From: a virus
Taxonomy: Duplodnaviria > Caudoviricetes
Direction: 5' to 3' (one strand)
Length of the DNA stretch: 64,000 nt
IMG/VR virus record: IMGVR_UViG_3300033463_000027
Span: 1-64,000 of that record
Part shown: positions 15,887 to 50,597 of the stretch, one piece after another
Numbering within the stretch: position 1 is the stretch's first letter
Layout of the letters: the number at the start of each line of letters is the position of its first letter
Notes under the pieces: model-generated
The model's database searches: none
Seen by the model: the letters and a program-made list of their open reading frames with translations, nothing else
What the model was told of the DNA's origin: nothing
Translations under genes and position numbers: made by a program

Positions 15887-15906
15887 TCATTTCACCTCTT
15901 TCTAAA

Positions 15907-16173
15907 TTATTCCGAGGGTTTTGTTCTCCACTGTTTATTTTCATAATCGAATACATAGACAGCCCACGTATCAAGTTCAAAGAAAAGAGAAAACTGCGGG
16001 GGAGTTATGCCTTTCCATATAATAGGCTTAGTATCAGTCGAAAGTCCAGTAAAGAACATCTCGCGCTGATTCTTGTCATCTCCCTGAGAGTTAAGTTCTA
16101 CCATATTTCTTACCACCTTTCTTATAGTAAAGGGCGACCACCAAAGCAGCCGCCCATAAAATCTAAGTTTCAA
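15907..16173 (-). CDS. small tail-associated hypothetical protein (likely start MVELNSQ)
   Basis: GLSTDTKP...FFELDT...FDYENKQW, a pattern seen ahead of phage fibre genes. Confidence 0.6.
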   Translation of the reverse strand: MKLRFYGRLLWWSPFTIRKVVRNMVELNSQGDDKNQREMFFTGLSTDTKPIIWKGITPPQFSLFFELDTWAVYVFDYENKQWRTKPSE

Positions 16174-16655
16174 ATATCGTTATTGTTTTCATCAAGCTTG
16201 CCTTCAATGGGTAGTTTATCCAATTTATCCATAAGCGTAGACACATAACCATTACCGACAACACCATGTTCGTCGGGCTGATGATAAATGTCATACATCT
16301 CATGCAAAGCCTTCCACTTGCGAATAGAAATCTTCCCCTCTGAGAGAGCTTCTTCTCCCGCCCTCACAATAGAATGGCGCATTTCAATCCGCTTGTCATC
16401 GTTCTGCTTTTCAAGGATATGTATTACGTTGTCAATCTTTTTGCTAATATCGCCTATCTGATCGTCATGACGATGTATGGCTTCTTTAATTTCCTCAAAC
16501 TCGTCTTTCTTCTTCTTGATATTCACAAGCAAATGAAAGAGTTTAACGACACCCGTATAAATTACTCCTACGATAATACCAAATACAATAATCCATGCAA
16601 TCAATACGCCAATTGGTATCTGCGACAAAACTTCCCATACAGATTCAGTACCCAT
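16170..16655 (-). CDS. membrane protein, lysis module (holin-like)
   Basis: N-terminal TM plus coiled coil; follows the endolysin. Confidence 0.6.
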   Translation of the reverse strand: MGTESVWEVLSQIPIGVLIAWIIVFGIIVGVIYTGVVKLFHLLVNIKKKKDEFEEIKEAIHRHDDQIGDISKKIDNVIHILEKQNDDKRIEMRHSIVRAGEEALSEGKISIRKWKALHEMYDIYHQPDEHGVVGNGYVSTLMDKLDKLPIEGKLDENNNDI

Positions 16656-16671
16656 ATCAAATCACCGAACC

Positions 16672-18084
16672 TTATAGGAGCTTATTGACTTCTTTTTGAA
16701 CGGCATTATAGTCATATCCTGCGGCTTCAAGTCTGTTCTTACGGTCAGCGCCGTTACCCCACTTGCCAGCAACCACTTCTTTTGCAACTTCGGCATTGGA
16801 CTTAGTGGGCTTTGCAGGGTACTTATCGGTATTGCCAGTCAGACATATCCAACCCGCACCCGATTTCAGCTTGCCCCATACATTATCACCGATAGTCTTT
16901 TTCTCAGTGATTGTATAGGTTATTCCATAGTTAGCCTTGGAAGTTACGTTACCGCCACCCGCAGTAGACTGAACCATAACACCGTTCTTGTTAGTAATTG
17001 TTACGGTTTCATAATTTGTAGGTGCGGGAGTAGGAGTAGGCGTTGGAGTAGACCCGCCACCATTGAGTATCTTGTTGACTTCCTGAACGATGTAAGGGAA
17101 TTTGCCCCCAAGATACTGACCGGGGCAACCAGTGGCATAAAACCACTTGTGCATGGTAAGGTTAGAGCCGTTAAGCTGTCCTGTAAAGGTAAGCTTCTTA
17201 ATGCCGTTTCTCTTACAAATATCAGCACAAAGCTTAATAGTAGACTGTAAAGCGGCATCGGTTACTTTCCAATCGGGTTCACCCGCATTAGGAGCATTAG
17301 CCACCTCGATAGTAACCGCTCGATAATCATTATCGGGACTATTGCTTGTCCATGCTCTATTCTTCTCTTCGAGTAAAAGTCCAATGGTACCGTCAGATTG
17401 AATAGCATAGTTTACAGAACCACCTCTTGTTGACATAAGAACGTTTTTACATTGATCTATTGTAAGATTTCCCGCCATGTGATGAACAGTGATTCTATCA
17501 ATCTTTTTACCTCCACGATCGTTATAATTTGTAGTAAACAGATTCTTCTTGGTTGCGAGAGGACTATTCGTGTACTTTACCGTATTACTGTTGTTGGTTT
17601 TAGTGGTCGTAGTGTTCTTTGTGGTTGTGGTAGTATTCTTACTGTTCGTCTTAATTCTCGACTGGTCTTTCGGACGAAGAACACCGAGAATATAATTATA
17701 GTTATGGTCATGAAGTGTACAACATTCACCACAACCGTCCCAATTCTGTTCGTAAGACCTAAACCAAGAAGTGTCACCGTCGCCAGTACAAACCGCTACG
17801 TGTCCCGCTTCGCCATTCAGCCCCGCAGACCAAACAATTATATCGCCTTTCTGCGGGACAAATGAAGGAGTATTAGCTATTCTTGTAAATAAATCTTTGC
17901 TCGGTTGACTATTAAAATTCTCATAAATCTGCCACGCATACATACCCACAAAAGGTTTGCCACCAATTACTTTAACAGTATAATCATTAGCAAGATCGAA
18001 ACAAGTTACGCCGTAAACTCCGTCATAGTCTATGTACTTCCCCTTGTTTTGCTTAAAGTATTCGTCATAAGTCATAAGCGCCAT
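16672..18084 (-). CDS. modular endolysin: CHAP + amidase_2 + SH3-like + Cpl-7 repeat
   Basis: TCFDLANDY/GHVAV/EQNW (CHAP); ITVHHMAG/AWTS/TIEVAN/HKWFYATGCPG (amidase); WGKLKSGAGWI (SH3); VAKEVVAGKWGNGADRKNRL (Cpl-7). Confidence 0.92.
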   Translation of the reverse strand: MALMTYDEYFKQNKGKYIDYDGVYGVTCFDLANDYTVKVIGGKPFVGMYAWQIYENFNSQPSKDLFTRIANTPSFVPQKGDIIVWSAGLNGEAGHVAVCTGDGDTSWFRSYEQNWDGCGECCTLHDHNYNYILGVLRPKDQSRIKTNSKNTTTTTKNTTTTKTNNSNTVKYTNSPLATKKNLFTTNYNDRGGKKIDRITVHHMAGNLTIDQCKNVLMSTRGGSVNYAIQSDGTIGLLLEEKNRAWTSNSPDNDYRAVTIEVANAPNAGEPDWKVTDAALQSTIKLCADICKRNGIKKLTFTGQLNGSNLTMHKWFYATGCPGQYLGGKFPYIVQEVNKILNGGGSTPTPTPTPAPTNYETVTITNKNGVMVQSTAGGGNVTSKANYGITYTITEKKTIGDNVWGKLKSGAGWICLTGNTDKYPAKPTKSNAEVAKEVVAGKWGNGADRKNRLEAAGYDYNAVQKEVNKLL

Positions 18085-18087
18085 AAA

Positions 18088-18468
18088 TCATTCCTCCTTC
18101 TTGTTTTCTTTTAAAATTTCTCTAAGAGTTTTCAGCGAATTATTAATCTCCGCATCAATAAATGCAATCACTTCTTCCTGACTTGCCGCTTTAGAGAGTA
18201 TCGGGTACTTATCATATATCTCTGCAATTACCTTTGACCTCTTAATGCTACCCGATTTATTCCATTCCTCGAAGTCAATTTCAGCTTCGGTAATCATCTT
18301 TAGCATGATTTCTTTAATCAGCTTCTTAGCAGTCTCAATTTTTTCTGCGTTATCAAGGGCAAGATACTTGCTTACCAATCTGCTTATTGAAATCAATGTG
18401 CCAGTAAGCACAAGTAGCATTACCCAATTCTCTGACAGAAAACCAATAAATCTTTCAATTCCCGTCAT
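18088..18468 (-). CDS. putative holin
   Basis: N-terminal TM; directly upstream of the endolysin. Confidence 0.6.
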   Translation of the reverse strand: MTGIERFIGFLSENWVMLLVLTGTLISISRLVSKYLALDNAEKIETAKKLIKEIMLKMITEAEIDFEEWNKSGSIKRSKVIAEIYDKYPILSKAASQEEVIAFIDAEINNSLKTLREILKENKKEE

Positions 18469-18853
18469 TTATATTCACCTCTTCAAAGCCACTTCCTTCT
18501 AAGTCACCACTACCATTAACGGTTGTTTCATAAACAACACCGCCTACGCAATTCTCTTTCGCTGCCTTGTGATAATATCCAAGTACAGACGGAACTAATG
18601 TAACTGGGACTCCTATCAACGTATACAGCGCACTTGTGTCTCCTGTTTTTATCATAGCGAACTCAGAAAAAAGAACTATTTCGATACAAATTAAAATGAC
18701 CGTCCACAAGATCAGTTTACTTGTAGACGGTGCTTTTGCTTTGGTTTTATATTCATTTTGTTCTGCTTGTAGCTTGTATTTTTCTTCTAAATACTTATTT
18801 CTTTTTTGTAGATTTTCAAGTCTTTTTTCATACTTACCTTTCATTATCGCCAC
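18455..18853 (-). CDS. two-TM membrane protein (holin-like)
   Basis: Two hydrophobic segments then YYHKAAKEN. Confidence 0.6.
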   Translation of the reverse strand: MAIMKGKYEKRLENLQKRNKYLEEKYKLQAEQNEYKTKAKAPSTSKLILWTVILICIEIVLFSEFAMIKTGDTSALYTLIGVPVTLVPSVLGYYHKAAKENCVGGVVYETTVNGSGDLEGSGFEEVNINDGN

Positions 18854-18865
18854 CTACTTTTAAAA

Positions 18866-19987
18866 TTAAACTATCGTGCTTGTTTGAGTGACTATCCATT
18901 TTTGCGATGGCACATTGTTGGGAATACGTATCAATGCAAGAGGATTATTCCTGATTGATGCAAAAGCCATACTGCCATATCTACCAGAAGGATCTGTAGG
19001 ACAATAACGTTGCCATTGACCATCATTACAGACAACGGGACGCATGGTTATATTAATTCCGTTAATGCCATGTGATTCATTTCCAAAATCAGTATTCCAC
19101 ATTGTAGAACGATCAAATCCAGCAATCGAACTTTCTAATATAAAAGCAACACTATCGTTTGAATATCCACCCGGATAAGTATGGCACACTCGGGTATTTG
19201 AATTTGAATCTGTCTCGATTATTTGATACTTTAAAGATGCTGGATTAAGCTGAATTGAATAATTATATTCTTCTATATGTGCCTGATTATTATTTATTAT
19301 TATAAATGGCAATGTAATGTTGTCATAATGTGTTGCATTATATATATTAAATAGTCGATCCCTACCTTTTGGAACAACCTCTGCGGGATCATTGGTTAAA
19401 GAAACAACAACGTTATTAAATAAAGTTATTGTATAATACCATACCATGTGATAAAAAGCTGCGAAAGTAATACCCTGTTCCCAAGCTTCGGGACTATAAA
19501 CATACCTATCAAACACAAATGTTCCATATAAAAAAGAAATTCTTTCGCTTTGACCTATTTGTTCATTTACCGAATAACTATAATTATTTGATTCGGTATT
19601 AGCAGTTTTTGTAAACTGATAGGAATTAACAACCTTTGTCTGTACGTTTATCGGAGGTGTGATTGTTTCTCCACCTTCTGCGCCAAATGATGATAACCCT
19701 ACCTTTAAAGCAATATATCCATCAGTGATGCTATTCCAATAATGAACCCAAACATGATCTCCTTCTAAAAGCGTGTCTTGGGATTTATTAATTAATACCA
19801 CGCATACTTCATCATTCTCGTTATTTATATAGGTAACTTTAAATTTAGTATTATTACTATTCTCAACAGCTCCAATAACAACCGCATTAATTCTTTTTAA
19901 TCTCGTCTTTCCACGAAGATGACGATATATAATATTATACAAAGTATTCAATGCATAATCACCTCTTTTAATACGGTGCAGATTCAA
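18866..19987 (-). CDS. baseplate/tail-tip protein, paralogue 3
   Basis: LINKSQDTLLEGDHVWVHYWNSITDGYIALKVG shared motif. Confidence 0.7.
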   Translation of the reverse strand: MNLHRIKRGDYALNTLYNIIYRHLRGKTRLKRINAVVIGAVENSNNTKFKVTYINNENDEVCVVLINKSQDTLLEGDHVWVHYWNSITDGYIALKVGLSSFGAEGGETITPPINVQTKVVNSYQFTKTANTESNNYSYSVNEQIGQSERISFLYGTFVFDRYVYSPEAWEQGITFAAFYHMVWYYTITLFNNVVVSLTNDPAEVVPKGRDRLFNIYNATHYDNITLPFIIINNNQAHIEEYNYSIQLNPASLKYQIIETDSNSNTRVCHTYPGGYSNDSVAFILESSIAGFDRSTMWNTDFGNESHGINGINITMRPVVCNDGQWQRYCPTDPSGRYGSMAFASIRNNPLALIRIPNNVPSQKWIVTQTSTIV

Positions 19988-21248
19988 TTCTGCTCAAAGT
20001 TTGACGCACGTATTCTCTTTCATCATGCGAAGAGAAAATCGGTGCAAACCCTCCGTTGTTTTGTGAATTACCATCACAGCTACAAACCAAATATTGTTCT
20101 CCTGCAATGTAAGGCACTTCTGAAGAATCTCCTAACGATGGGTCTGGTGTTAATAGTTTTCCTTTAACAAAACTTTTATATACCCATTTACCTACCAAAT
20201 AGCCATAAGGCACCGACATGGCTGATTCATCTGTACCATTCAAGTATACCTTATCATATACATAAATAAATCCCCCATTTAAAGCATCTGCGTAATTTGT
20301 AAATGCTACATCTCCCGGTGTATAATATTCAGATGGCGACATTTCCCAAGCCGCACGGACTGCTCCCGAATCCCCCCACTTCATCATTGAATACAAATGC
20401 GAATCCGAACCTATAATATTATACATCATAGTGGCACGACAAGATTCCCCCGATGTAAAAGTATTATAATATGTATTAAAATTATTATAATTTTGAGCAA
20501 AATTATCAGCCCACAATGTGTCCGGGATACCCCCCCGTATATCATACACTCCAAAATGAATATCGACTTTTTTATAATTAGTATTATCTTTATTTCCTAT
20601 ATAAATCCCTTGTATATCTTTTATAAACAAACTATCATCTAAATCAATAATAAATTGTATGAAATTATTTATAGATGTTGTCCAACCAGTATTCGGTTTT
20701 ACAGGCGAAGCATATATTTGTGGCAAATTAGATACACGGGGATAATAAACCGCAGGACACCCACAAACATATATTACATTGGGTGTATTATCGCAAGCTC
20801 TGGTAACTTTATTTTTTATTTCAAAAGACGACACCGTTTGAGACATTTGCCTTATAGCATTACTTTTGTTAGTAATTGTCATCGCTCTCTCTAATCCAAT
20901 TTTATGACTAATACTTTCTGTTGGTTTGCCAATTTTAATTGCAACATAACCATCAGTTATTGTTCTCCAATAATATATCCATACAGCATCGCCGATTTTG
21001 AGCCTTTGTTTAGTTTTGTTTAATAATGTTAGCCAATTTTTTTCATCGGGATCGTTCTCAATCTCAGTTTCGGTTAAATCATCATCTACAATATTGCGTA
21101 TCTTAACCTTCACTTTGGCACTATCTGTATCGGGAATTAGTTTTTTTATAACGCCATATTGTCGCTTGATGTTTTCAATATTCTCAAAAGTGCAATCAAC
21201 AAGAGAGTCAAAGCACGACAAAACGTCCGACACAAATATCACCTCCAT
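19968..21248 (-). CDS. baseplate/tail-tip protein, paralogue 2
   Basis: LLNKTKQRLKIGDAVWIYYWRTITDGYVAIKIG shared motif. Confidence 0.7.
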   Translation of the reverse strand: MEVIFVSDVLSCFDSLVDCTFENIENIKRQYGVIKKLIPDTDSAKVKVKIRNIVDDDLTETEIENDPDEKNWLTLLNKTKQRLKIGDAVWIYYWRTITDGYVAIKIGKPTESISHKIGLERAMTITNKSNAIRQMSQTVSSFEIKNKVTRACDNTPNVIYVCGCPAVYYPRVSNLPQIYASPVKPNTGWTTSINNFIQFIIDLDDSLFIKDIQGIYIGNKDNTNYKKVDIHFGVYDIRGGIPDTLWADNFAQNYNNFNTYYNTFTSGESCRATMMYNIIGSDSHLYSMMKWGDSGAVRAAWEMSPSEYYTPGDVAFTNYADALNGGFIYVYDKVYLNGTDESAMSVPYGYLVGKWVYKSFVKGKLLTPDPSLGDSSEVPYIAGEQYLVCSCDGNSQNNGGFAPIFSSHDEREYVRQTLSRIESAPY

Positions 21249-22352
21249 TTATTCTTCAATTGGTTGGAAATCACAAGAACTTAATACACATTGAGCATAT
21301 TCATATTCTGCTTCATTTTGAAAACCGAAATTTTGATTGAGCCAATATGTCCAATAAGCATTCCAAGTATTATATATTAAACACCCTGTATTGACATATC
21401 CATAAGGAAAGGTGCTATTTGGACTATGAACGTTATTCTTATCCCATATTATTAATATAAAACCAAGGTTTTCAAAAGCGGCGTTTGGATATGAGAACCA
21501 CTGATTGTTGTCTAATATAGTATTCTCAACACCATCTTGTTCAACCATAACACTAAAAAATGCCGCTTGTTCATCATCGCGAGTTTCAAGACATCTCATA
21601 GCAAGAAATAATTTAGAATCTCTGTTGGGGTCGAGAGAATATGTTGATGTAGATATTCCTCCCGAAGAAGTAAATTCGCATTTTGTAACATTACGTGCAG
21701 CACGTACATTCATTTCATGAGTGAAAAAGTTAGGATTAACCAATCCTATATCATTGGACACATCAGACCCCGAACGCATTATTAAAATTGGATTGCCGTT
21801 GGCGAAGATTGTGTTATAACCGTGAGCTTCTTCGCCTTGTGTAATCTTAATTCCTGTTGATTTATCTACATTCATCAATCTACTGTCATAATTTTCCCTC
21901 CACTTAGTATTTTCGTAGTCACTACCCCACTCACTTGAAGAATCGTATTTTTTGGCATGAGCATATAAATCTCCTTGCACAGTTGTTAATACGGCAAGAT
22001 TTTGTACAGTTAAATCACATGAATTATTTTGAGAGATTCCATTTTTAATTGCGATGTAGCCACTTGTAACGGTAGTCCAGTAATGAATCCAAACAGAATC
22101 TCCGTTTTTTAGTTCTTCTCCTGTCATGTTTAATAGAGTCACATCGCCATTTTCGGCTTTAACATTATCCTCTTCCTCGGGCGGTCTATTCTTGTATTCT
22201 TTTTGCAATCCAAGCATATCATCATTTTCAATGGTCACGATTGCCTTTTCATACGATAACACTTTTTTTATTATTCCATATTTGCGTTTTAACACTTCGT
22301 ATGTTTTATAGTGATTATCTATTAATTGATGTAGTACTTCAAGACCTGTCAT
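21249..22352 (-). CDS. baseplate/tail-tip protein, paralogue 1
   Basis: LLNMTGEELKNGDSVWIHYWTTVTSGYIAIKNG shared motif. Confidence 0.7.
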   Translation of the reverse strand: MTGLEVLHQLIDNHYKTYEVLKRKYGIIKKVLSYEKAIVTIENDDMLGLQKEYKNRPPEEEDNVKAENGDVTLLNMTGEELKNGDSVWIHYWTTVTSGYIAIKNGISQNNSCDLTVQNLAVLTTVQGDLYAHAKKYDSSSEWGSDYENTKWRENYDSRLMNVDKSTGIKITQGEEAHGYNTIFANGNPILIMRSGSDVSNDIGLVNPNFFTHEMNVRAARNVTKCEFTSSGGISTSTYSLDPNRDSKLFLAMRCLETRDDEQAAFFSVMVEQDGVENTILDNNQWFSYPNAAFENLGFILIIWDKNNVHSPNSTFPYGYVNTGCLIYNTWNAYWTYWLNQNFGFQNEAEYEYAQCVLSSCDFQPIEE

Positions 22353-25300
22353 GTAATCACCTCAAATGGAATATTATTAGCTGTAGCAAATGCCTGAACG
22401 TTTCCGTTAGCTACACCATGAATCTTGAAATTGGCGTTGTTATTCTCAAATAACTTACCATAACTTGTATTTGTTACAGTAAAATTATCATCATAGAAAT
22501 ATACATCAGTAAGATAATTGTTGTTACAAATAAACTGTAACCCATTTAGAACATTTCCACAGTCAATTGTTACCGCTCCGTAAAAACGAATTGCCGTACA
22601 ATTATTTCCTGTAACAAAATTCATAGTTTCATCAGCTATCATTTCTGAACAATCAATTTCAACATTGTTTCTAAAATCAATAGATTCAAGAGAAGTATTT
22701 GAGATTATAAAGTTGCCATTATATCTAAGTTTCACTTCGGCTTTTATATTTACATTTGTTAAGTTAGTCGCTTGCATAAAAGTGCTTTCATAAACATAAA
22801 TATAATCTCCGTCAAGAGAAAATGTGGTATTATAGAATTGAGAATATGAAAGGAATATACTTCCGTTACATAGCTTTACGTCACCACTAACTTCCAATTG
22901 CCTTACCGAACTAAAAAGAGCTTTTGAATTTTCAAAATATACATTAGCTAATGCAACTTCGATGTAATTTTTCCAATAATCTCCCGCAAATGATACAACA
23001 TTGTATAATTCTAAACCACCCTTAAATCTATATTCAGATTCCGCATTACCTATATTAATTAAAGTAATATAAGTATTATTGATGTTAGGGTGATAAACCG
23101 TAAACAAACATTGACCTTGTGAAGCAGAATTATCAATTTTGATTCCTTTTGCAAAATCAACGTTAGGGATTCTTATGCTACTGGCAGATGGGTATAAAAT
23201 ATAGGAATCGCTGTTTCCCGTAGTGATCGTAACATTGTTTTTAGCAGACACTTTTTGCATAGTATACCCTACTAAGAAAGCATTCGTATTACTCATATCA
23301 AAAGATAAATTGTAATCATTGTTAAATTCAAATTCTTTTAAACCTGTTGGGGTATGAGAAGAAAGTGTAACATTCTTTACATATTTAGGGAGGACTATCG
23401 TTTCTAAATATGAGTCACCAAATGTATCAATGTCAAGTGATTCAACAGCGTTTGGATATTTAAGATAAGTTACTTTTCCGTTACCAATTCCATTATTTAA
23501 CAACGTAGTAAGCACACCATTTAATGTCATAACAGTATTATCAACTATTGGTACACAGCCATACTTGATTGTTGGAGTACCCTCAATCGTAGGTGATACC
23601 ACCGTTGTGGGTTCATAATCTCTACCCCAATAATAATATTTTTTGTCCCCGACTATAAGAAACATAGATGAATACACATCGGTAGACTGATCTGTTATCT
23701 TTGACATTGAAACAACTCCGCTACTAATTTGAGTAGTTCGCAGTTCTAATACATAATCTTCATAATTCGCCCAATTTGCCATCAACACGAAACTTTGATT
23801 AGGCACAAGATACTCTGTCTCCAATTCATAAGTACCACCATTAATATTATCAGTCCAACCTACAAGTTCATGATCTTCTTTGCTAAACTGTATAACATGA
23901 GTATTTTCATCAATATCTGTTGCTGTAATAAAGTTCTCACCGATCTCAATAAGTTGATTTGTAGGCGGTACTCCCGTTACCTCGCCTACGGAATAAACAA
24001 TACTGAACTTAATAGGAGAATTTGGTAATGCTGAATATTGTGTTTGCGATGAAATATCAGAATTAAGAAATCCAAGATTAGATACTTCAAGCTGTATGGA
24101 ATCCGCTCCGAGAGGGAATGTTATGGAATTGATAATATACAAATCACAATCTAACGCAAAATCAGGGTCGGTAATTGCAATAACATCTCCCTCATTCAAA
24201 TGAAGATAGGGAGAGCAACTAAAACTAATACTGGTAGCAAGGCAAGTTTCTTGCATTAATCTATATTCAGCGTAATCTCTACAACGTTTAATTACAAGTT
24301 CTTCTGCTTCGCCTTGCAATGTTGGGTCTTGTTCAATCTCTTCGTTTGTCACGATATTTCCCGCGTTTATAATAACAACCCCTCCATTTTCAGGAAGGGT
24401 TCTTGCTCCAATCTTATTATAGCAAAGAGGTGAACGTGGATTTTTATTTATTGCTGTGTAACTTCCATTGGGAGTTTCAACATTGTCGGTAGCAACGATA
24501 ATTTTATTGACACCTGTAAGTTTAATTGATTCTTGTGGATTTTGATAACCGGGCAAATGATACTTTACTTCAATTGCGGGTGCTCTAAAACCTATCCAAT
24601 ACGGGAAATCATCTGAAAACGATCTTCGCAAAACAAGTCTGCCTACGTTATCATAGAATATTTCTGCCCCATAGCTTGTTGCAAGCTCATTTAAGAAATC
24701 TCCATAGTATTGTCCTGCGCTCAATGTAAACTCTTTATAAAGATAAATAGAGTTCAAGCTATCATCGTCAATCATCGGATCAATGGGGTCTAATACCATT
24801 CCATTTCCCATGTCTAACGAGAGAATATCCCTTATTACCTCTTTAATTTTTGCACCATACTCAAATACCGTATTCATTTCATCGGCTTGCAATACATTTA
24901 AAGTGCCGTCAAGTTGAGCATATTTGTCAATACCAGAGATTGACACCGTATGAGCTGTACTATCGACATGAATATCCTGAGTTATATAGACACCCTTACT
25001 AAACCAATAAGTATCAGTCTCGTTAGTCCAGTGTACATTAGCATCATTCTGTTTATAGTGGCGATTATCGACCAAACCTATATACAATCTGAATTTTCTG
25101 TTAAACCAAAACGGCGAATCCTCAGTTGGAATATATTTTAAGTCTACATTAATCAAGGTTATTGAACATGATTTCCGAGTGCCTTGTGAGTTATTGCAAG
25201 TAATACTACCAGCATTCCCATAATCTATGTCCTGCTCTATACAAGCAACGGTATTTTCATAATGGTCAAGCAATTCTAATTTAACACGCCATAAAAACAT

Positions 25301-28918: not shown

Positions 28919-31900
28919 TTACTTTTTACCGATCTGTGATTCCTGATTCATTTTAACAAACGCTCCAGTGAGCATAGACATAAACGCAGCTTCGGTCATG
29001 GCAAATCCGGGATTATTGACATTAATAGTCTGAGTACGATTATCAACATTATTCTTGTTATTTGTTACTGTGTCAGCTATCATCTTTCCTGCATTTATTA
29101 TTTTGTCAGACAAACTACTTGAAGCGTTATTAAGAAGATTTGGTATCGTTTTGGCAAAACTGTCATAAACAGAGGTTGATTGATTAAAGATACCCATGAG
29201 CTTACCAATCAGACCATTGTTTGCTGTACTATCATTGGTAGTTCCACCCTTGAAATCGGGATATTCACGAATGTAATCTTCGTCAAACAAGGACTTTGCC
29301 CAATCCCATGTTTTGTCTGTATCGTTCATGTTGGACAATGCGGTATTCATAGCAATAGCCTTATTCAGAGCTTCAACAGCTTCTTTCTGCTGATTCGTGG
29401 CATCGGCAAACTGTTCAGCATAAGTCTTGTAAAAGTCGAGGTACTTCTTTTGGTTATCCTCCATGTCCTTATACAAGTCTTTCTGCTCTTTAAGTTTGTC
29501 TATCTGCTCAGAGTAAGTATCAAGTTCCTTATTGGCTATTTCTATCATAGGAATTACAGAATTATTAAGTTGATTTTGTAAGCCCTCATAATTATCCTTG
29601 TAATCCTCGATAATCTCCGTATCTTGTCCTGCAACCTTAACACGCCAATCAGCACCAAGAATAGCGGCGGCGGTCATTTCTTCTTGGGCTTTCTTGTAAG
29701 CGCCTATGGCTTCCTCCCAAGCCTTTTTATACTCTTTGAGTTTATCCATCTCCACTTGAAGAGCTTCGATTTCTTTCTCTCTAAGGTTTTCAATCTCGGA
29801 AGTACGCTGTTCTTTCTCAGCTTGCAGACGTTCTTTCTCTTGTTCAAGACGTTCTTTTTCTTTTTCGAGTTTAGCTATTGTATCTTCTCTTTGAGCTTCT
29901 TCAAGCTCTTTACGGGCTGCGGAAACGGCTTCTGAATTTTCCATAATTTGCCAGCCCTTTTCCGCTGTATAGACTCTAACCTTTTCATTCTTAGCCTTTT
30001 CAAGAGCAAGCTCTTTCTCTTTCAGCTTATTAAGCTTATCCTGCTCGTCTGCTTCGTCTTGCAAAGCCTTGATTTGCTTGTCAAATCCTTCCTCTTGGGC
30101 TTCAATCAACTTGACTTGCTTATCATAGGTTTCCTCAATAGCCTTGATTTGAGCATCATATCTTTCCTCAATCTTGTCCTTTTGTTTTTCAAGACCGTCG
30201 TTCTGTTCATCAATGTAGTCCTTGACCACACTTGCGGCTGTCTCGTAATCGTCAATCAAGTCCTCTAAACGGTCTTTTTCCTTTTCAAGAGTTTTGATGT
30301 ACTTCTCTTGCAAATCCTTTTTCTTTTCAAGAGCATCTATCTGTTTATCAATGGTTTTGACTTCACGTTCAAGAGCCTGAATGTTCTCATGGATTTGGAG
30401 CTTTTGGTCTTTGTAGAGATCAGAAACTTTAGTGGTTTTTTCTTTGACCTTTGCGGTTACGTCTGCTTGTTGTTGAAGCCAATTGATGAGATTTTCAACT
30501 TCGCTATAATCAGAAGAGAGCGGATTAAGAGTAGATTGTATATCTCTTAATTGGTCTATCAAAGGCTGCATTTGAGCATTGGCAAGTTGTTGTAACTTGA
30601 ATTTGAGTGTTTCAGCATCGTCAAGATACTTAGCCAAATCAGGAAACGCACTTAGAATATCTGAATCAAGAGCAAAGCCATTGCCTGTTTCTTCAAGGTT
30701 TTTGTAGGCGGTTTGGATTTTGCCTAAGAGTTTTTCAATATCTTCAAGACCATTCTGATTGTAGAAGTCGGCAAAATCAAAAGAAAAATCTACGTTTTCA
30801 GGATTAAGCCATTCGTACATATCATCAAGCTTCTTTTCTATCGCGGCTTGCAAAACAGTATCATCAGAAGCAAAATGCTTTATCATAGCATCGTGCCATG
30901 ATTGATAATTTTCTTTAGTGACAGTTTGATAATTTATACCATTGAGAGTAAACTCAAATATATCTAATTGAGCTAACTGTTCTGCCGAAGCTATTTCTTC
31001 ATCTCTTGCGGCAAGCAATTCATCACGATAGACAACTAATTTTTGAACAAAATCTTTATATTCCTCGGTGGCTTTTTCTTCGGTTTCTTCTAAATCATCC
31101 ATCCATTTTAAAAGTTTATCAAGCTGTTCTATTGTGGTATCCCGATCTGCCAATCTATCAACATAATCTTGTACTCCATCTCCAAAATTCATAGGTTGGA
31201 ATAAACCTAAATCCCTACCTTTTCTTTTTGATCGAACAACAATATCGCTTTCGGATTTGCCAAAACCAAAATATGCTCCGCTTGCATTACCACTTACGGG
31301 TTGATTAGATTTTTTAGTTTCATCATAGGCTATTTGCGCGGCTTGTCTTGCGCGTTGTATTTCAAGAGTAGTAAGCTGTTTAAGTTTTTCAATTTGATCT
31401 TCATATTTTCCATTGACCAAATCAATACTTTCGGCTTCTTTACCATAAGAATCATAAAGACTATTTTGCACCTTTAATAATTCTTCTTTATCGTCAGTGC
31501 TTAAAGAAATTTTCTTACTTAATTTTTCATAAGTATCTGTATAATCTTTTAAATTCTTTACAGACTCAGTATAAGATTTTGCTTCTTCCTTTATTTTTTC
31601 TATATTTTCTTCTCTGCGTCTTTTTTCTTCTAAAGAAGCCTGTGCTTCACGCTCTCGTCTTTTTTCTTGCACCCTTGACCATATTGACACACCAATAGCA
31701 ACGGCGGCGACCACGGCTGCTGTTGCTGCTAACGCAGTGCCAACAACGCCAAGTTGTGTTGCTATCATTTTAATTTCATTGCCAATACCACGAAGCAAAA
31801 AAGGAGTTCTTTGCAACGAAGCACCATTACTTAATGTTTTAATAACACCCTGCGCTTGTGCTGTATTTAAACCCTCTTGTGCTGCCGCAGCCAAAATTGT

Positions 31901-32302
31901 TTCTCTTGTTAAATTTTTAAGTCCAACGATTTCACCATTTTGGGCTTCGGTCAAATTTAAAGCAAGCATAATTGCCTTTGCCTTTTCTGCATTTCCTGTG
32001 ATGGCGGTTAATGTATTTTGAGCTTCTGCAAAAGTAAGATTTTTATTCGTTACAATCAAACCAGCGGTTGCCATAGCTTGTGCTATTTCTGATTCGGTAG
32101 CGCCATTAGCGGCTAATGTTTGTGCGATTAATTCATTATTCAAATTTTGAGAAGATAAAACTGCGGCTTGTTGCACTGTAGATAATTTGGACACCGACAC
32201 AGCCATAGCTTTTATATCACTTGCTTCCCACGTACCTGTCCATGTGCTAACATTCAAAAAGCCCTTCAACATTTCCGTAGCTTTACCAATTTCTTTAAAC
32301 AT
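28919..32302 (-). CDS. tape measure protein, exon 2 (1127 aa)
   Basis: Ala/Gln/Glu/Lys-rich coiled coil; begins MFKEIGK right after the intron's terminal G. Confidence 0.88.
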   Translation of the reverse strand: MFKEIGKATEMLKGFLNVSTWTGTWEASDIKAMAVSVSKLSTVQQAAVLSSQNLNNELIAQTLAANGATESEIAQAMATAGLIVTNKNLTFAEAQNTLTAITGNAEKAKAIMLALNLTEAQNGEIVGLKNLTRETILAAAAQEGLNTAQAQGVIKTLSNGASLQRTPFLLRGIGNEIKMIATQLGVVGTALAATAAVVAAVAIGVSIWSRVQEKRREREAQASLEEKRRREENIEKIKEEAKSYTESVKNLKDYTDTYEKLSKKISLSTDDKEELLKVQNSLYDSYGKEAESIDLVNGKYEDQIEKLKQLTTLEIQRARQAAQIAYDETKKSNQPVSGNASGAYFGFGKSESDIVVRSKRKGRDLGLFQPMNFGDGVQDYVDRLADRDTTIEQLDKLLKWMDDLEETEEKATEEYKDFVQKLVVYRDELLAARDEEIASAEQLAQLDIFEFTLNGINYQTVTKENYQSWHDAMIKHFASDDTVLQAAIEKKLDDMYEWLNPENVDFSFDFADFYNQNGLEDIEKLLGKIQTAYKNLEETGNGFALDSDILSAFPDLAKYLDDAETLKFKLQQLANAQMQPLIDQLRDIQSTLNPLSSDYSEVENLINWLQQQADVTAKVKEKTTKVSDLYKDQKLQIHENIQALEREVKTIDKQIDALEKKKDLQEKYIKTLEKEKDRLEDLIDDYETAASVVKDYIDEQNDGLEKQKDKIEERYDAQIKAIEETYDKQVKLIEAQEEGFDKQIKALQDEADEQDKLNKLKEKELALEKAKNEKVRVYTAEKGWQIMENSEAVSAARKELEEAQREDTIAKLEKEKERLEQEKERLQAEKEQRTSEIENLREKEIEALQVEMDKLKEYKKAWEEAIGAYKKAQEEMTAAAILGADWRVKVAGQDTEIIEDYKDNYEGLQNQLNNSVIPMIEIANKELDTYSEQIDKLKEQKDLYKDMEDNQKKYLDFYKTYAEQFADATNQQKEAVEALNKAIAMNTALSNMNDTDKTWDWAKSLFDEDYIREYPDFKGGTTNDSTANNGLIGKLMGIFNQSTSVYDSFAKTIPNLLNNASSSLSDKIINAGKMIADTVTNNKNNVDNRTQTINVNNPGFAMTEAAFMSMLTGAFVKMNQESQIGKK

Positions 32303-32334
32303 CAAACAATATTTAGGTTTTGTGGATAAACCTC

Positions 32335-32363
32335 TTGACAAAAGCTACAAAAAATGATATAAT
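32335..32363 (+). promoter_or_regulatory. consensus sigma-A promoter inside the intron (antisense to TMP)
   Basis: TTGACA-N17-TATAAT with TG extension. Confidence 0.85.
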
Positions 32364-32406
32364 AGTCTAAAAGATTTTTGCGATATTGGGAGACAATAAA
32401 AATATC

Positions 32407-32817
32407 ATGTGGATTATAATTATTATCTTTTTTTTATTAGTGTTCCCCTCATTATGTGATTCTGACAAAAAGTCTTGTTTGTCAGGGATTGCAAGCATTG
32501 TAATCATAGGAACTATACTATATGGATTATCAATACTAAATAATATATGGGATTCTACCATTGCAACTATTACTTATATTATTCTTGCCTTAATTACCAT
32601 AACAATTATTTGGATTGCAATTCAAGCGTGTATTAGTATTTCCAAAAGAAATAAAGAAGAAGAGCTTATAAAAAAAATTCTATCAAATACAAAATGTCCT
32701 TATTGTCAAAGCAATAAAACTGTTTTTTTAGAATATTATAGAATTAATCGTGACATGAATCAATTACAACTATATTGTCAAGACTGCGGAGAGACTTGGA
32801 TTTATAAAGAAGAATAA
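32407..32817 (+). CDS. intron cargo 1: multi-TM membrane protein with C-terminal Zn ribbon
   Basis: About three hydrophobic segments then CPYCQS...CQDCGETW; directly downstream of the promoter; the TTG at 32386 is an alternative start. Confidence 0.75.
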   Translation: MWIIIIIFFLLVFPSLCDSDKKSCLSGIASIVIIGTILYGLSILNNIWDSTIATITYIILALITITIIWIAIQACISISKRNKEEELIKKILSNTKCPYCQSNKTVFLEYYRINRDMNQLQLYCQDCGETWIYKEE

Positions 32818-32821
32818 GATG

Positions 32822-32846
32822 GATTGATTTATGCGGTCAATCAATC
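32822..32846. terminator. hairpin between convergent cargo ORFs
   Basis: GATTGATT-N9-AATCAATC. Confidence 0.5.
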
Positions 32847-32853
32847 ATAAAAA

Positions 32854-32982
32854 TCACTTAAACTCAATCCCCAACTCTTGATAAGGTTCTTTCTCGCCAG
32901 TTTCTTCATCAACCATGTACTTTATACCCACCTTATCAAATAACTCTTTCCATTCTTGTTCCCGGTTTTTTATTCTCTTCAT
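32854..32982 (-). CDS. intron cargo 2: 42-aa hypothetical protein
   Basis: MKRIKNREQEWKELFDKVGIKYMVDEETGEKEPYQELGIEFK*; weak RBS. Confidence 0.4.
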   Translation of the reverse strand: MKRIKNREQEWKELFDKVGIKYMVDEETGEKEPYQELGIEFK

Positions 32983-33050
32983 CAAACAAAGAGAGGAAAT
33001 CTCCAACAGAAGTAATATCTAACAATTTTGTTACAAGGAGTGTGACCACT

Positions 33051-33182
33051 ATGCGCGGCAAACAAAATCTCCCTCTTGGTTTTTCTATTGGTATGATTAT
33101 TGCGGGGTTATGCTTGGGTGTCCCCGGTATAATCGTATACCTTATAGGGTTCTTTATTATTGCAAGTATATTTAAACTATAA
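33051..33182 (+). CDS. intron cargo 3: 43-aa membrane peptide (not in the ORF track)
   Basis: AAGGAG RBS; MRGKQNLPLGFSIGMIIAGLCLGVPGIIVYLIGFFIIASIFKL*. Confidence 0.65.
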   Translation: MRGKQNLPLGFSIGMIIAGLCLGVPGIIVYLIGFFIIASIFKL

Positions 33183-33210
33183 ATATTCTGTAAAAATTCA
33201 CAATGGCTAA

Positions 33211-33239
33211 TTGACAATCACAATACCATGTGTTATAAT
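33211..33239 (+). promoter_or_regulatory. second consensus sigma-A promoter inside the intron
   Basis: TTGACA-N17-TATAAT with TG extension. Confidence 0.85.
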
Positions 33240-33274
33240 TTATAAGCTAAAATATAACGGTGTTAATGGAGTGA

Positions 33275-33697
33275 TTGTTCGTGCTAAATCTTGACTATAA
33301 GTGTTTCCGTGATGTTCTGAATTATATTCACAAACACCTTGAAATGCCTACGTTTGTAGATTATCCTAACTCAATTTCAATACTTGAAATTTGTAACGCT
33401 CCTGAATTATCTGATTACAGCAAAGTACAAATCAAATATACAATCATGAAATTAATCGAAGCTGATTTTGTTTGCTGTCATGGTTTAGACAATAAAAGTA
33501 AGTCACCCAAATATATTTACATAGACGATATAACCATAAAGGGCTATAGTTTTCTTGCAAATTCAATGAACAAAATAGTTTGGAATAAAGCTCTATCATC
33601 AATTAAGTCAACAGGAATAGTTTCACTGAACGCATTTTGTATGTTAATGGACAAAATAGCCTTGAAAATTTCTATTGACTCACTACGTAAAATATGA
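33275..33697 (+). CDS. intron cargo 4: DUF2513-like winged-helix protein
   Basis: LDYKCFRDVL...IKYTIMKLIEADFV...DITIKGYSFL...VWNKA pattern; has its own promoter and terminator. Confidence 0.7.
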   Translation: MFVLNLDYKCFRDVLNYIHKHLEMPTFVDYPNSISILEICNAPELSDYSKVQIKYTIMKLIEADFVCCHGLDNKSKSPKYIYIDDITIKGYSFLANSMNKIVWNKALSSIKSTGIVSLNAFCMLMDKIALKISIDSLRKI

Positions 33698-33703
33698 ATC
33701 CAA

Positions 33704-33733
33704 GACACTATCGCAAGATAGTGTTATTATTTT
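33704..33733 (+). terminator. terminator of cargo 4
   Basis: ACACTATC-GCAA-GATAGTGT followed by TATTATTTT. Confidence 0.7.
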
Positions 33734-34176
33734 GCTGTAATCTTACCAACTCTTACAGCGAGAGTACCACATACATGAAAGTACAAGGTAAGTTTATACT
33801 ATAAATCAAAGTGCCATGCTCACTTGTTCCGAGCGCATCTTAGTACGATCAGCGTTTCATCTAAATCGTACCCACCTGTTGTCGCTACTGTGAGGGCTTA
33901 ACTTGTATAACAAGTTCTATCCCTGCGAATCCACCGAGCGCAACATTTTTACAATCCTAAACTGTCACCAGAGTAGGGGAGTAGTCACGTTGTACAGTGT
34001 TCCTCGCATATTGAGGTATAGCCTGTATAGATAGGATTTATACTATATTCTATACAGACATAGGATTTCTCCGTTTTACATTAGTGTATTTCACTAACGT
34101 CTGAAATAAAACTGCCTATCGACAAGAAACTTTTCAGATGGCGGCATATTCTGTTGAGGGTAAACAATTTAACCCT

Positions 34177-37100
34177 ACCGCCGTTTTTGAGAAGTGCTGT
34201 TGCACCTATTGTGCCAAGTATTGTTGGGATTGCGCCAAGTGTATCTACAAGATCAGTTGCAAGTTGCACTAACTGAGTAAATGCTTTTAAGAAACCAGTT
34301 ACTTTATCGGTGTCAAAGAATTTGCTGAAAAATTCTTGTCCTGATGTTTTAAGATTCTGTAAGGAACTGGCGAGGGTATTTACGGTCTTATTCGCTTCCC
34401 GCATAGCTGAACCAGCACCGCGCTCATAAGTTTCCATAATACCTTGCATGGAATCCCAATCTTGAAGAATTGCAGCAAGGGTATTAGCCCTATACTTGCC
34501 GCCCAGATCACTAAGCACCACAGCGCGTCTATCATCGCCTTGTGGTAACTCGTTAAATACTTTAGCCAATTCTCCAAGTAATTCAATAGGTGTTTTAAGC
34601 TGTTCAGCCCCATCAACTATTTTGTGCATTGAAATACCAACAGTATCAAATGCCTTAACGACTTGTTGATTCGTCACATCCGAAATTTGGAGCATGATTG
34701 ATTTGATCGCGTTACCAACGACGTTTCCACCCTGTTTGGTTCTTGCTTCTGCAATAGCAATCAAGGCAGACAATTCCTCAATACTCATTCCATACTGATG
34801 AGCAACAGATGCGGCTTCTTTGGTACCTTCGGTCATATCTTGCATTGACACTGCATATCGGTTTGTGATAAGGTTCTGTCCGTCGAGTATTTTTGTTAAT
34901 TTTTCAATGCTACCACCTAATTGATAAGCGGCATCAGTAGCAATCAAATAGTCTCTTGCGGTGCTATCGCTCACATCACCCGCTGCCTGAACCAATAGTG
35001 CGAGATCAGCCATCTTCTCCGACTGACCCTCGCCCAACGTTTCATAACCAGCTCTCGCCATTTCCTGAACGCCAGTCAGATAATTCTGAACACTAACACC
35101 ATACTTGCTTGCGGCATCAAATGCAGTCTCACCCAACTTCTCCAAACTCTCAACACTACGCTCAGAGGTCTTAGAGATTTCAGTCAAGATACTATCAACA
35201 TCTTTAAGAGTAACAAGGGCTTGCTTGCCTTCGTTTGTTATCATCATGAAAGCATTAGCAAGATTGAACCACCCTGCAAATTTCAAAGCCTTTTCTTTGA
35301 AGGTGTCCATAAAACTCTTACCAATCTGCCCTGTCTGCTGTGCAGTCCTATTCAGTTCGTTAAACTGTTGTGTCAGATGAGTAAGCGTTTGTTTATCTGC
35401 ACTCTGTATCTGTGTCTGCAAAGATTTCATGGACTGTCTCATACTCTCACTTGCACGAGTATTGTTTCTCAGCCATGTTTCGATCTTGTTGTTCAGATTA
35501 CTCTTTCTATCTTCAAGAGCCGCCGCATCTTTTACAGATTTCAAACTTGTTTGAAGTTCTTTGGCGCGTTCAGAAGTAGATTTGATTTGATTATCAAGTT
35601 GGGTAAATCCCGCAATAACCTCTTGTGTAGCACCTTCGCTTTGGAATCGCGCTTGCAACTGAGCATACTGATTAGAAAGATTAGTTATATCTTGTTGAAG
35701 TTGAACTACCTCGCTATTACCTGAGTTTTGTGCAAACAGACCCTTGCTTGTATCGGTCTGTAATTTCTTAATGGCATTATCTGTGGCTTGAATACTTTGC
35801 TCACTGTTTTGGAGAACCTTAGAATACTCTATAAAGGCTTGTATGGCTTGCTCCGCAGACTTTTTACTTTGGTCAAAAGTATCAGTAGTTGCATTTCTTA
35901 CTTCATTGACAGCTACAACAACAGTATCGTACTGATCTCTTAAAAGTTTGATGGTCGCGGGGTCTTGAATAGCTTTACCGTTGGTGTTAGAATTGGTCGC
36001 TTCACCATAAGCCTTATTGATTAAATCAGTAAGTTTTTGCCATTCTTTCTCTTGATTTTGTATTTCCTGTGTTTGTTGTCTCACTTCTTTTGTAGCCTGA
36101 GACAACATTTTATTAAACGTTTGTAAACTATACTTATCGGTTATATTTGCAAAAGCACCAAGTAAATCAGTAGTAGTAAAGGTTAGCTCATTTTCATTTA
36201 CTCCAAGCTCTTGCACTTTCTTAACTATTTCATCTAAAGAAGCGCTTGCTTTAGAATAATCAACATTAAATGAATTTCTTGCCGCATTTGATTGACTTAC
36301 CTTTTGTAAACTATCAAATTCAGCTTCCAACTTGCGTAAATCTTCATAAACAGTCCTAAAACTATTTCTATCGCCTACAGTTTGTAGCGCTTGATTGACA
36401 GCATGAATCCTATCTATAAAGTCTTGCGATGCAAGATTGGAATTTCTAACATCATTTTCAAACTCTTTGATTTCTTCGTTAAGAATAGCTTTTTGATTAA
36501 CTACGCTTTTACTTGACATTTGAGTGTCAGCGTATTGAGCACTTCTTATTACTTCTGCAAGCCGTTTAAATGCCGCTTCACGATCTTGTAAATCTTTAAT
36601 TTCTTGTTGATTTACAGTATGTCCACTCTTTATTGTTTGTTGGATTTCCTCAATTTTTTGTTTGAGTTTAGAATATTCGTCAATGTATGTATCAATTTGA
36701 GTTTTTAGTGTAGAACTCTGTTCGCCATATAAACCATTTTTTGAAATAACACCATTTTGAGTATCAACGCCCAACATTGGTTTGTTTTTTTCATGTGTTG
36801 AAGCAATGATGTTATTATATAAATCATTAATTCTTTGTAATTCTTTCTCTTGATTTTTAAGCTCTTTATTATACTCTTGGGTATCTTTAATAGCAGACTC
36901 ATTAAAAGCACCACCCATAAAATCAAAAGAAAATCCTTTAATTACATTAGCTTCGTCTTTAATTGATTGTAATGAATATCGGAATTTTAATATTTCATTC
37001 TCAGCATTTTTGGCAGAAATAGTAAAAGCATCTATCTTGCCGCTGGCATCAGTAATACCTTGTACATCAACATTCCCTTTGCCAAAAGCATTTTCATAAG

Positions 37101-37590
37101 CTTTTTGGACTTGATTCATAGCTAAAATTAAAGATTGCGCAGATGCTTCGGCGGGTTTGTTATTTATAACTGTAATACCATTGCTATCAATATTTTGACT
37201 GGAAGGTAATTTATTCCCAATCATTGCTTGAACTTGTTCTTTAGCAAGATGTTTATAGGTATCAGCTAACTGCTGTACAGCCTGTTTCGCCTGTTGTGTC
37301 TGTTGTGTAACGCTGCTCGTAGTATTCGCCACTTGTTGCATTTCATTCCGAACACTTTCTAAACCAGCATTATCAAAGCGTACTTCACCAACATTTATAG
37401 TGAGTTTTTGATTGTTTAACTGATCTTGAATACTCTTAACAGATAAAGAACTTGTATCTAAAATTGCTTTAACCTTAATCGCATATTCATCTTTAGTTTC
37501 AACATCTTTCTTAAACGCCGCAAACTGAGCCTTTATACTATCAAGACTTGTATGGTCAAGTTTAGCTCTAACATTAAAAATATAATCCAA
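34177..37590 (-). CDS. tape measure protein, exon 1 (1138 codons; spliced product about 2265 aa)
   Basis: TP901-type TMP core (DSILTEISKT, EMARAGY, GGNVVGNAIKSI, LGGKYRAN); the read-through tail RVKLFTL... is intron sequence. Confidence 0.9.
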
Positions 37591-50342: not shown

Positions 50343-50597
50343 CCTATTGTTACCATGACCGAGGTTCTTCCAAGAGTGTCTTTACACTCGACCCCGATTC
50401 TCGCATTTCAATGTTAGATTATAGTGCGAGTTCAGACTGTCGCATCCCTATATAATACCGATAGGGTTCTTTCACTCAGTCGTTCACGCTGTATTTAAAC
50501 TTGCGCCCTGTCACCCATCGCTGGGTTTCCAAGTCAATCAGAAAGAATTTATCCATGTGGGATATGGATTAACCCACAAAATGCACAACGAAATTTT
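50343..50597 (-). ncRNA. 255-nt ORF-less group I intron in terL
   Basis: P1 AUGCAU/GUGCAU (U.G); P10 UCGUU/GACGA; P3 UUCUUUC/GAAAGAA; P5 CCCA/UGGG; P7 GACUG/CAGUC; P8 CCCUAU/AUAGGG; terminal G. Confidence 0.9.

Follow-up and report, generated by a model that had tools for sequence, protein, structure and literature searches.

A putative divergent group I intron with variable antisense cargo in the tape measure gene of an uncultured phage

Phage group I introns such as those of T4 nrdD and sunY have their catalytic core upstream and a homing endonuclease open reading frame (ORF) placed 3' of it, in a loop of the P9 region. IStrons, for example CdISt1 of Clostridioides difficile, are group I introns fused to an IS200/605 element. 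The morons of prophages and the defence hotspots of phages are small variable cassettes with a promoter and terminator of their own, and they include abortive-infection and toxin-antitoxin genes. For tape measure genes, the sections on such elements in Tourasse and Kolsto 2008 (PMC2504315) describe group I introns of Bacillus cereus-group prophages at three sites, TMP-IVS1, IVS2 and IVS3. Here we analyse the first 64 kb (64,000 nt; hereafter the window) of the 139.5-kb uncultured virus record IMGVR_UViG_3300033463_000027, in which 1,874 nt bearing small opposite-strand genes interrupt the tape measure gene. Comparison with related loci makes it quite probable that this insert is a divergent group I intron with a 5' catalytic part, a large cargo loop and a short 3' tail. 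The interrupted gene comprises the following parts:

34177 to 37590, minus strand: exon 1 of the tape measure gene, 1138 codons from TTG 37590, ending ...ALLKNGG (from the ORF and its translation)
32303 to 34176, minus strand: group I-type intron of 1,874 nt, beginning at A 34176 next to the splice-site U and ending at the terminal G 32303, its boundaries set by the intron-less locus L007; homologous ribozymes stand at the same codon in L004-L006 and L008-L025
28919 to 32302, minus strand: exon 2 of the tape measure gene, ATG 32302, 1127 codons plus stop, starting MFKEIGK (from the translation)

The upstream tape measure ORF spans 37590 to 34081 on the minus strand, such that the exon 1 frame runs 31 codons into unrelated sequence before reaching a stop. 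It contains a PhageMin_Tail domain (PF10145, aa 825-1031, E 1.3e-18), and its last 400 residues are 24-30% identical to tape measure proteins of SPbeta-like Bacillus, Staphylococcus, Mammaliicoccus and Enterocloster phages. Exon 1 can be aligned to aa 32-709 of SPbeta YomI, a protein of 2285 residues; the alignment stops at residue ~700 and YomI goes on for ~1,590 aa more. An exhaustive HMMER search of 1.84 billion representative proteins, with the N-terminal 230 residues of exon 2 as query, returned 46 matches, each a cluster representative, and in almost all of these the matched part stands at or near the protein's own N-terminus. Two of the 46 start earlier, P0006 by 66 residues and P0004 by 92, and this additional part shows homology to the end of exon 1 in the window. 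These metagenomic homologues read through the junction in a single uninterrupted ORF, namely ...FALFKNGG/VIKELGIAQ... in L007/P0006 and ...GLFKNRGV/LVEFGK... in P0004. At the DNA level L007 has AAAAATGGCGGT directly followed by GTTATTAAAGAACTTGG, whereas in the window 1,874 nt separate AAAAACGGCGGT from ATGTTTAAAGAAATTGG; since the intron-less L007 DNA is contiguous where the window carries these 1,874 nt, the insertion is precise to the base. Because the intron-less homologues are contiguous across the junction, and SPbeta YomI likewise continues past the aligned point, a single tape measure gene split by a precise insertion is the supported interpretation of the sequences. A tblastn search of phage records with the exon 2 start found nothing, and a search of IMG/VR for related loci with the same query returned zero relatives.

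An earlier, sequence-only reading of this stretch had proposed the insert and the two tape measure halves at coordinates that prove exact by the ORFs and the sequence. It had also predicted an in-frame spliced product: excision of the 1,874 nt yields ...LLKNGG/MFKEIGK... and a protein of 1138 + 1127 = 2265 aa, which agrees with the uninterrupted homologues L007/P0006 and P0004.

The 5' end of the insert is a conserved element with relatives in other phages:

33732 to 34176, minus strand: ribozyme part, intron nt 1-445 (from homology, covariation and RNAalifold)

Its G+C fraction is 0.36-0.44, as against 0.22-0.35 for the cargo. This stretch of ~445 nt is 80% identical to L006:7812-8334 and 85% to L004:1-268, and a shorter piece matches L005; all three matches lie upstream of exon 2 homologues. 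An exact 16-mer out of the conserved centre, in the P7 region, was then used to fetch further relatives from IMG/VR, adding 18 more loci. There are thus about 20 homologous ribozymes at the same codon in other uncultured phages (L004-L006, L008-L025), and in every locus that is long enough the element starts directly after ...K-N-(G/V/I)-G of the tape measure ORF. Neither megablast nor blastn matched the intron to any of 50,697 phage records, and a second copy of the ribozyme was not found in the phage's own genome.

The window and L006 also differ in how far the sequences flanking the ribozyme have diverged. Identity between them is 84% over the last 200 residues of exon 1 and only 38% over the first 230 of exon 2, with the ribozyme in between at 80% (DNA). 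The intron accordingly coincides with a mosaic boundary (L006 against window 34177-34776 and 31613-32302), and the conserved intron may serve as a recombination joint for the exchange of tape measure halves.

For the ribozyme part, 13 distinct copies were aligned with MAFFT, a group I structure was drawn by hand, and the pairs were then counted. The elements of the drawn structure, all on the minus strand and in intron nt unless stated otherwise, are:

1-20: P1a hairpin, in the ribozyme part
26-31: P10 guide GAAUAU, in the ribozyme part
32-37: P1 3' strand GCCGCC, in the ribozyme part
39-77: P2
79-97: P2.1
98-159: variable hairpin, followed in order by P3, P4-P5-P6, P7, P8, P9 and P9.1
Window 33830 to 34017: catalytic core (from the covariation counts)
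160-163 with 300-303: P3, ACCU with AGGU
169-174 with 248-253: P4, UGCGAG with UUCGCA
178-182 with 241-245: P5, its extension capped by a GNRA loop (206-215)
254-256 with 281-283: P6
261-266 with 272-277: P6a
287-297 with 340-347: P7, C[A]G[U]AGCG[A]CA with UGCGCUCG
306-312 with 328-334: P8
Window 32303 to 32330: conserved intron 3' tail UCCACAA...UUGUUUG with the terminal G, also present in L004, L005 and L006

Standard pairs fill 85% of the cells in the proposed structure, as against 30-44% when the 3' partners are slid by 1-3 columns; cells in which both sides changed and the pair was kept number 123, as against 11-31 in the slid controls. None of 500 shuffles reached the observed covariation score. 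RNAalifold, unaware of the drawn structure, recovers P1, P1a, P2.1, P4, P6, P6a, P7, P8 and P9.1.

The helices that would define the splice sites are in place on both sides. The end of exon 1, GGCGGT at 34182-34177, forms as GGCGGU the 5' strand of P1; its six pairs are 100% paired in 11 sequences, the U.G at the splice site is invariant, and compensatory variants occur at two pairs (GGCGGU/GCCGCC, GUCGGU/GCCGAC, AUCGGU/GCCGAU). The first six bases of exon 2, AUGUUU, pair with the guide as P10. This pairing reads GAAUAU/AUGUUU in the window, GAAUAU/AUAUUU in L006, GAAUAU/AUAUUC in L008 and AAAUAU/AUAUUU in L012, and holds at 5/6 positions in G001. Both helices had been called from the window alone, P1 with its U.G at the splice site and P10 with the same six bases; the relatives add compensatory variants to the former and covariation, in L008 and L012, to the latter. 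A terminal G directly precedes the exon 2 homologue in 7/7 of the 3' ends examined.

Within the core, P3 (four pairs) is 100% paired with three of the four changed on both sides, being ACCU/AGGU, GGGA/UCCU or GGAA/UUCC between lineages. In the drawn structure it crosses P7 to form the pseudoknot characteristic of group I folds. P4 is likewise 100% paired, three of its six pairs being compensatory, with five variants that include UGCGAG/UUCGCA, AUCGGG/UCCGAU and UGCGGG/UCCGCA; both strands come close to the classical P and Q consensus (UGCGGG / CCGCA in RF00028), and in L008 they read AAUUUGCGGGAAC and AAUCCGCAGGG. P6a is compensatory at 4/6 pairs, and P8 is 100% paired over seven pairs, six of them compensatory. 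P5 reaches no more than 67% pairing in the MAFFT alignment, partly from register shifts. J8/7 is UAAGA, near the AAGAUA consensus.

At the 3' end, the sequence-only reading had closed the loop with a P9.0 of GAACAA and UUGUUU. A pairing of the GAAC/GUUU type recurs among the relatives, but the six-base-pair helix is not conserved and was rejected as such: the AA of GAACAA is part of a P9 hairpin that covaries, with AAGUG/CACUU in the window and GACUG/CAGUU in L006. A long helix, UGUUGCGCU/AGCGACAACA, was also rejected, being broken in L004 without compensation. Judging from four sequences, CCACA of the tail can pair with UGUGG at intron nt 406-410 (P9.1), and GUUU with GAAC just after P7. In L012 the closing helix differs, with 8 bp of AAAACUAU/AUAGUUUU; the closing helices rest on few sequences.

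Several observations weigh against taking the insert for a working group I intron with a cargo loop. The sequence-only reading had proposed a covariance-model search in which a missing group I match would count against an intron, and here the outcome goes against it: with either the gathering score or E up to 10 as threshold, the window, the 2.1-kb region, the 216-nt core and six relatives all lack a match to Rfam RF00028 (Intron_gpI), while another, canonical intron of L006 scored 73.8 bits in the same search. P7, which as a group I helix would bind guanosine and has the strands CAGUAGCGACA and UGCGCUCG as against the usual GACUA/UAGUC type, keeps in its best pairing the C-G, the bulged A and the G-C, and requires two further bulges (three on the 5' strand). 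It is identical in 13/13 sequences, which leaves it neither backed nor contradicted by covariation, and its invariance is partly a selection effect, since the 16-mer bait came from the P7 region. The splice sites lie 1.9 kb apart (8 kb in one relative) with strong converging promoters between them, so that cis-splicing could be inefficient; and L006 has a sense-strand terminator-like hairpin and T run right after P9.1 (L006:8349-8375) that, if functional, would halt tail-gene transcription inside the intron. As to the cargo, the window proteins have no significant defence-family match in PADLOC.

The same Rfam scans gave no group II match either on the window, the 2.1-kb region, the core or the six relatives; weak sRNA and snoRNA matches among them were dismissed as chance. 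We judge the missing RF00028 match to be a blind spot of the model, created by the unusual, invariant P7. In its printed consensus, RF00028 treats the R and S strands as unpaired but conserved sequence, and the match is probably absent because P7 deviates and because of the long P2 and P5 insertions. The group I assignment is founded on covariation across about 13 distinct homologues and not on a library match; on this comparative evidence, and despite the RF00028 miss, the earlier call of a group I intron is borne out, and the 1,874-nt insert is strongly supported as a divergent member of that class.

Were there no intron at all, the insert would be antisense genes with their own promoters lying between late genes, as is common in phages, and the Rfam result would be negative as found. 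However, this is already contradicted by the sequence comparisons, namely by intron-less homologues with a continuous ORF across the exact point, by a 445-nt non-coding element that is 80-85% conserved with compensatory changes, and by the covariation of P1 and P10 with the exon sequences; we give it next to no chance of being correct.

A further possibility is that the ribozyme is a decayed, non-splicing relic, with two tape measure polypeptides acting together or separately, the N half with a 31-residue intron-encoded tail and the C half starting at ATG 32302. The lack of an Rfam match and the unusual P7 would fit with this, as would the fact that exon 2 of the window happens to begin with ATG and that the C half is called as a separate protein in almost all of the 46 clusters. 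Yet the strong conservation of the core, with helices kept by compensatory changes across lineages in which exon 2 is only 38% identical, implies selection on the RNA structure. Moreover, the first codon of exon 2 is ATG in the window only, being ATA in L006, L005, L008 and L012, GTA in L004 and ACA in G001, and GTT at the equivalent place in the uninterrupted L007; for the exon 2 homologues, gene callers took upstream TTG codons inside the intron as starts. No Shine-Dalgarno motif is seen in the sequence ahead of the window's ATG 32302. Exon 2 hence does not look built for its own translation, since its relatives start with ATA, GTA or ACA and no Shine-Dalgarno precedes the ATG in the window, and its independent translation looks unlikely. 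The split point, furthermore, falls in the hydrophobic segment region of a protein that is continuous in both SPbeta YomI and L007. Taken together, we regard a non-splicing relic as improbable.

Returning to the divergent group I intron, its loop in the window holds the following genes and signals, all on the plus strand and thus antisense to the tape measure gene:

33275 to 33697, plus strand: cargo gene 1, 140-aa DUF2513 (winged-helix-like) protein, PF10711 E 1.1e-13, phrog_585 E 1.5e-14, function unknown
33211 to 33239, plus strand: predicted promoter of the DUF2513 gene, sigma-70/sigma-A type, TTGACA-17-TATAAT with TG, 12/12 matches
33704 to 33735, plus strand: intrinsic-terminator-like hairpin and T run, 7 nt past the DUF2513 stop and short of the ribozyme
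33042 to 33182, plus strand: probable cargo gene 2, 45-aa hydrophobic/membrane peptide, ATG 33045 after AAGGAG
32386 to 32817, plus strand: cargo gene 3, 143 aa, with hydrophobic helices at the N-terminus and a CxxC...CxxC zinc ribbon at the C-terminus, phrog_6081 E 1.2e-5, function unknown
32335 to 32363, plus strand: predicted antisense promoter near the intron 3' end, TTGACA-17-TATAAT with TG, 12/12 matches, starting 32 nt inside the intron end

Pfam and PHROGs scans of the intron ORFs of at least 46 aa found no homing endonuclease (LAGLIDADG, GIY-YIG, HNH, His-Cys box), transposase or TnpA/TnpB, and the only matches were to DUF2513 and, weakly, to zinc ribbons. The ORF list and these scans thereby agree with the description in the sequence-only reading of mostly antisense small genes with neither a homing endonuclease nor an IS200/605 gene. 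The DUF2513 protein, which has a homologue in the L006 intron (PF10711 E 1.1e-15), has no PADLOC match. The 45-aa peptide has no family match in the PHROGs scan; 33042-33182 is probably a real gene. For the 143-aa protein the zinc-ribbon Pfam matches are weak (E 0.0015-0.006, all under cut-off) and a PADLOC match to PDC-S64 (E 0.0027) is too weak to count. Homology among the zinc-ribbon cargo proteins of the window, L006, L005 and L004 could not be demonstrated, their identity being 12-17%.

By motif matches, the layout is that of a moron-type cassette opposite to the tail gene, with two 12/12 promoters and one terminator-like site. The latter, at 33704-33735, is the sole such site within 32200-34300, and its hairpin would, if it acts as a terminator, end the antisense transcript before the ribozyme. 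Equally perfect promoters occur at the place equivalent to that of 32335-32363 in L006 (10011 to 9983) and L012 (3736 to 3708), so that the promoter adjoining the 3' splice site seems to be a constant component of this intron family.

The corresponding introns of related phages differ in length and in the genes that they carry:

L012, 909 nt: one antisense zinc-ribbon gene
Window, 1,874 nt: antisense genes for DUF2513, the 45-aa peptide and the zinc-ribbon protein
L006, 2,163 nt: antisense genes for a 106-aa protein, DUF2513 and a zinc ribbon, and a sense 100-aa ORF
L008, 3,455 nt: genes including one for a ToxN/AbiQ toxin
G001 (L010 type), 8,059 nt, contig 14418-22476: genes for NsnA-like, PD-T4-9 A and C, an XRE-type regulator, a Bro-N/KilAC antirepressor and a lipoprotein

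The cargo is always placed between P9.1 and the short 3' tail, and amounts to 0.45-7.6 kb of differing genes among the relatives. In G001 the 5' ribozyme and the matching 3' splice site, AUAGUAUG/ACAUUCAAAACA, are 8,059 nt apart, and the antisense lipoprotein gene adjoins that splice site. The AbiQ/ToxN gene of L008 (Pfam 1.4e-34, PADLOC 3.1e-29) is in sense orientation at L008:6663-7256 (minus strand of the locus); ToxI-like tandem repeats were looked for upstream of it and none were detected. L010 has NsnA (1.5e-30) and PD-T4-9 A and C. The sequence-only reading had expected that, if this were a cassette hotspot, related phages would show the same splice site with different cargo, and this is what the five introns of 909, 1,874, 2,163, 3,455 and 8,059 nt with their different gene sets display. 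Their comparison supports the intron as a variable accessory locus. Whether the family is, beyond that, a dedicated hotspot for accessory and defence genes, the ribozyme having been co-opted or persisting as a safe landing pad with a fixed antisense promoter and up to about 8 kb of cargo still being spliced, seems to us evenly balanced. For the window cargo the most likely role would be prophage-expressed exclusion or defence; we infer this from the recognised defence genes that hold the same slot in related phages and not from homology. A temperate life style is plausible because the genome encodes three tyrosine recombinases, their Phage_integrase matches being at window 6811-7374 and 9380-9898 (both minus strand) and at genome 87539-88069. 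The first two of these genes are a short distance apart, towards the left end of the window. There is no large serine recombinase (PF07508) in the genome.

We propose that upon late transcription the 5' part would fold and the guide GAAUAU-GCCGCC would pair first with the end of exon 1 (P1, with its U.G), then with the opening bases of exon 2 (P10), whereupon two standard transesterifications would join GGCGGU to AUGUUU, giving one tape measure protein of 2265 aa. The loop between P9.1 and the 3' tail would act as a cargo bay, with its three opposite-strand genes, two promoters and terminator, and this cargo need not rely on the late operon but could be expressed from, for example, the prophage, while splicing would render it harmless to the tail gene. 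The splicing, the expression of the cargo and its function are in this scheme all predictions from the sequence.

The same parts could alternatively work as an intron in pieces, with exon 1 plus the ribozyme and the 3' tail plus exon 2 transcribed separately, as the converging promoters and terminators of the cargo interrupt transcription, and with the exons joined in trans. The 3' end indeed has to supply only about 30 nt, the catalytic part being wholly 5', the cargo of G001 reaches 7.6 kb, and the L006 hairpin right after P9.1 is a terminator-like site in the sense direction. The window intron, by contrast, has no sense-strand terminator-like site, and no sense promoter stands out before exon 2, the best minus-strand matches being 10/12 and distant; moreover, we know of no trans-splicing group I introns in phages. 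Joining in trans therefore appears highly improbable, and splicing of the divergent intron in cis remains our preferred reading.

Other inserts occur in the tape measure genes of this phage group. In L007 another insertion (L007:1-1264) lies about 65 codons upstream in the same gene; it has a sense ORF of at least 396 aa with no Pfam match, after which the tape measure frame resumes at ...VNTLASSLQNLKT.... The exon 1 homologues of L006 (5363-7567), L008, L009 and L013 are split, upstream of the ribozyme, by inserts of 0.6-2.2 kb that carry sense ORFs of 557, 523, 504 and 190 aa, the 190-aa ORF starting like a GIY-YIG enzyme. These inserts of the relatives were not flagged by Rfam. There seem to be several introns per tape measure gene in the phage group to which the window belongs. 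Elsewhere in the window, 50343-50597 gave no group I match in the whole-window Rfam scan at gathering score. The canonical intron detected in L006, a 144-kb contig, falls within L006:14166-16191, where an RF00028 match (14166-14500, 73.8 bits, E 6.6e-17) is followed by Y1_Tnp (IS200/605) and OrfB_IS605 (TnpB-like) genes; this is probably an IStron, and it sits between the tape measure fragments and the distal tail genes. Also in L006, a small PTS-HPr family protein (PF00381) is encoded at 1856-2131, among the tail genes and just upstream of the tape measure gene.

If splicing does take place, the window phage has one giant tape measure gene that standard annotation wrongly reports as two truncated genes, and the same error would affect many uncultured gut-type phages, as nearly all homologues of the second half stand as separate proteins. 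It would also represent a use of group I introns beyond selfish homing, as a silent slot in an essential gene that collects prophage-expressed genes, and hence a new kind of location in which to look for phage-borne defence genes. The ribozyme would belong to a lineage that current covariance models miss, and the mechanistic question would be how the second splicing step is achieved across 2-8 kb and converging promoters. A full-text literature search, which covered one collection and so does not prove novelty, found no phage intron with independently promoted antisense or defence cargo; the cargo architecture thus appears to be unpublished.

Relative to the known systems, the window intron resembles those of T4 nrdD and sunY in having the catalytic core upstream and a gene-bearing loop in the P9 region before the 3' splice site. 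However, in T4 the ORFs run in the sense direction and specify an enzyme for the mobility of the intron itself, whereas the window genes are antisense and no endonuclease domain was found in them. With IStrons it shares a 5' group I ribozyme, a long 3' part with genes other than endonucleases, and an insertion into a coding gene that would be silent; unlike them, it has no TnpA/TnpB, and its cargo, which is no transposon, lies on the opposite strand under promoters of its own and differs from one relative to the next. Like morons and defence hotspots, it offers a variable slot, filled by AbiQ/ToxN, NsnA and PD-T4-9 in relatives; the known hotspots lie between genes, whereas this slot is within an intron of an essential structural gene. 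Group I introns in tape measure genes are themselves already published (PMC2504315). As those sections of the paper describe them, the TMP-IVS introns are likewise of the self-splicing type in tape measure genes of temperate Firmicutes phages, with several insertion sites per gene, with P1 and P10 fitted to the site, and in some cases without a complete homing endonuclease gene (PMC2504315). They are of the IA1/IA2 type and either have homing endonuclease genes or lack a complete one, and the same sections describe no independently promoted antisense cargo (PMC2504315). In contrast to the TMP-IVS introns, the family found in the window goes undetected by Rfam and carries 0.45-7.6 kb of unrelated genes.

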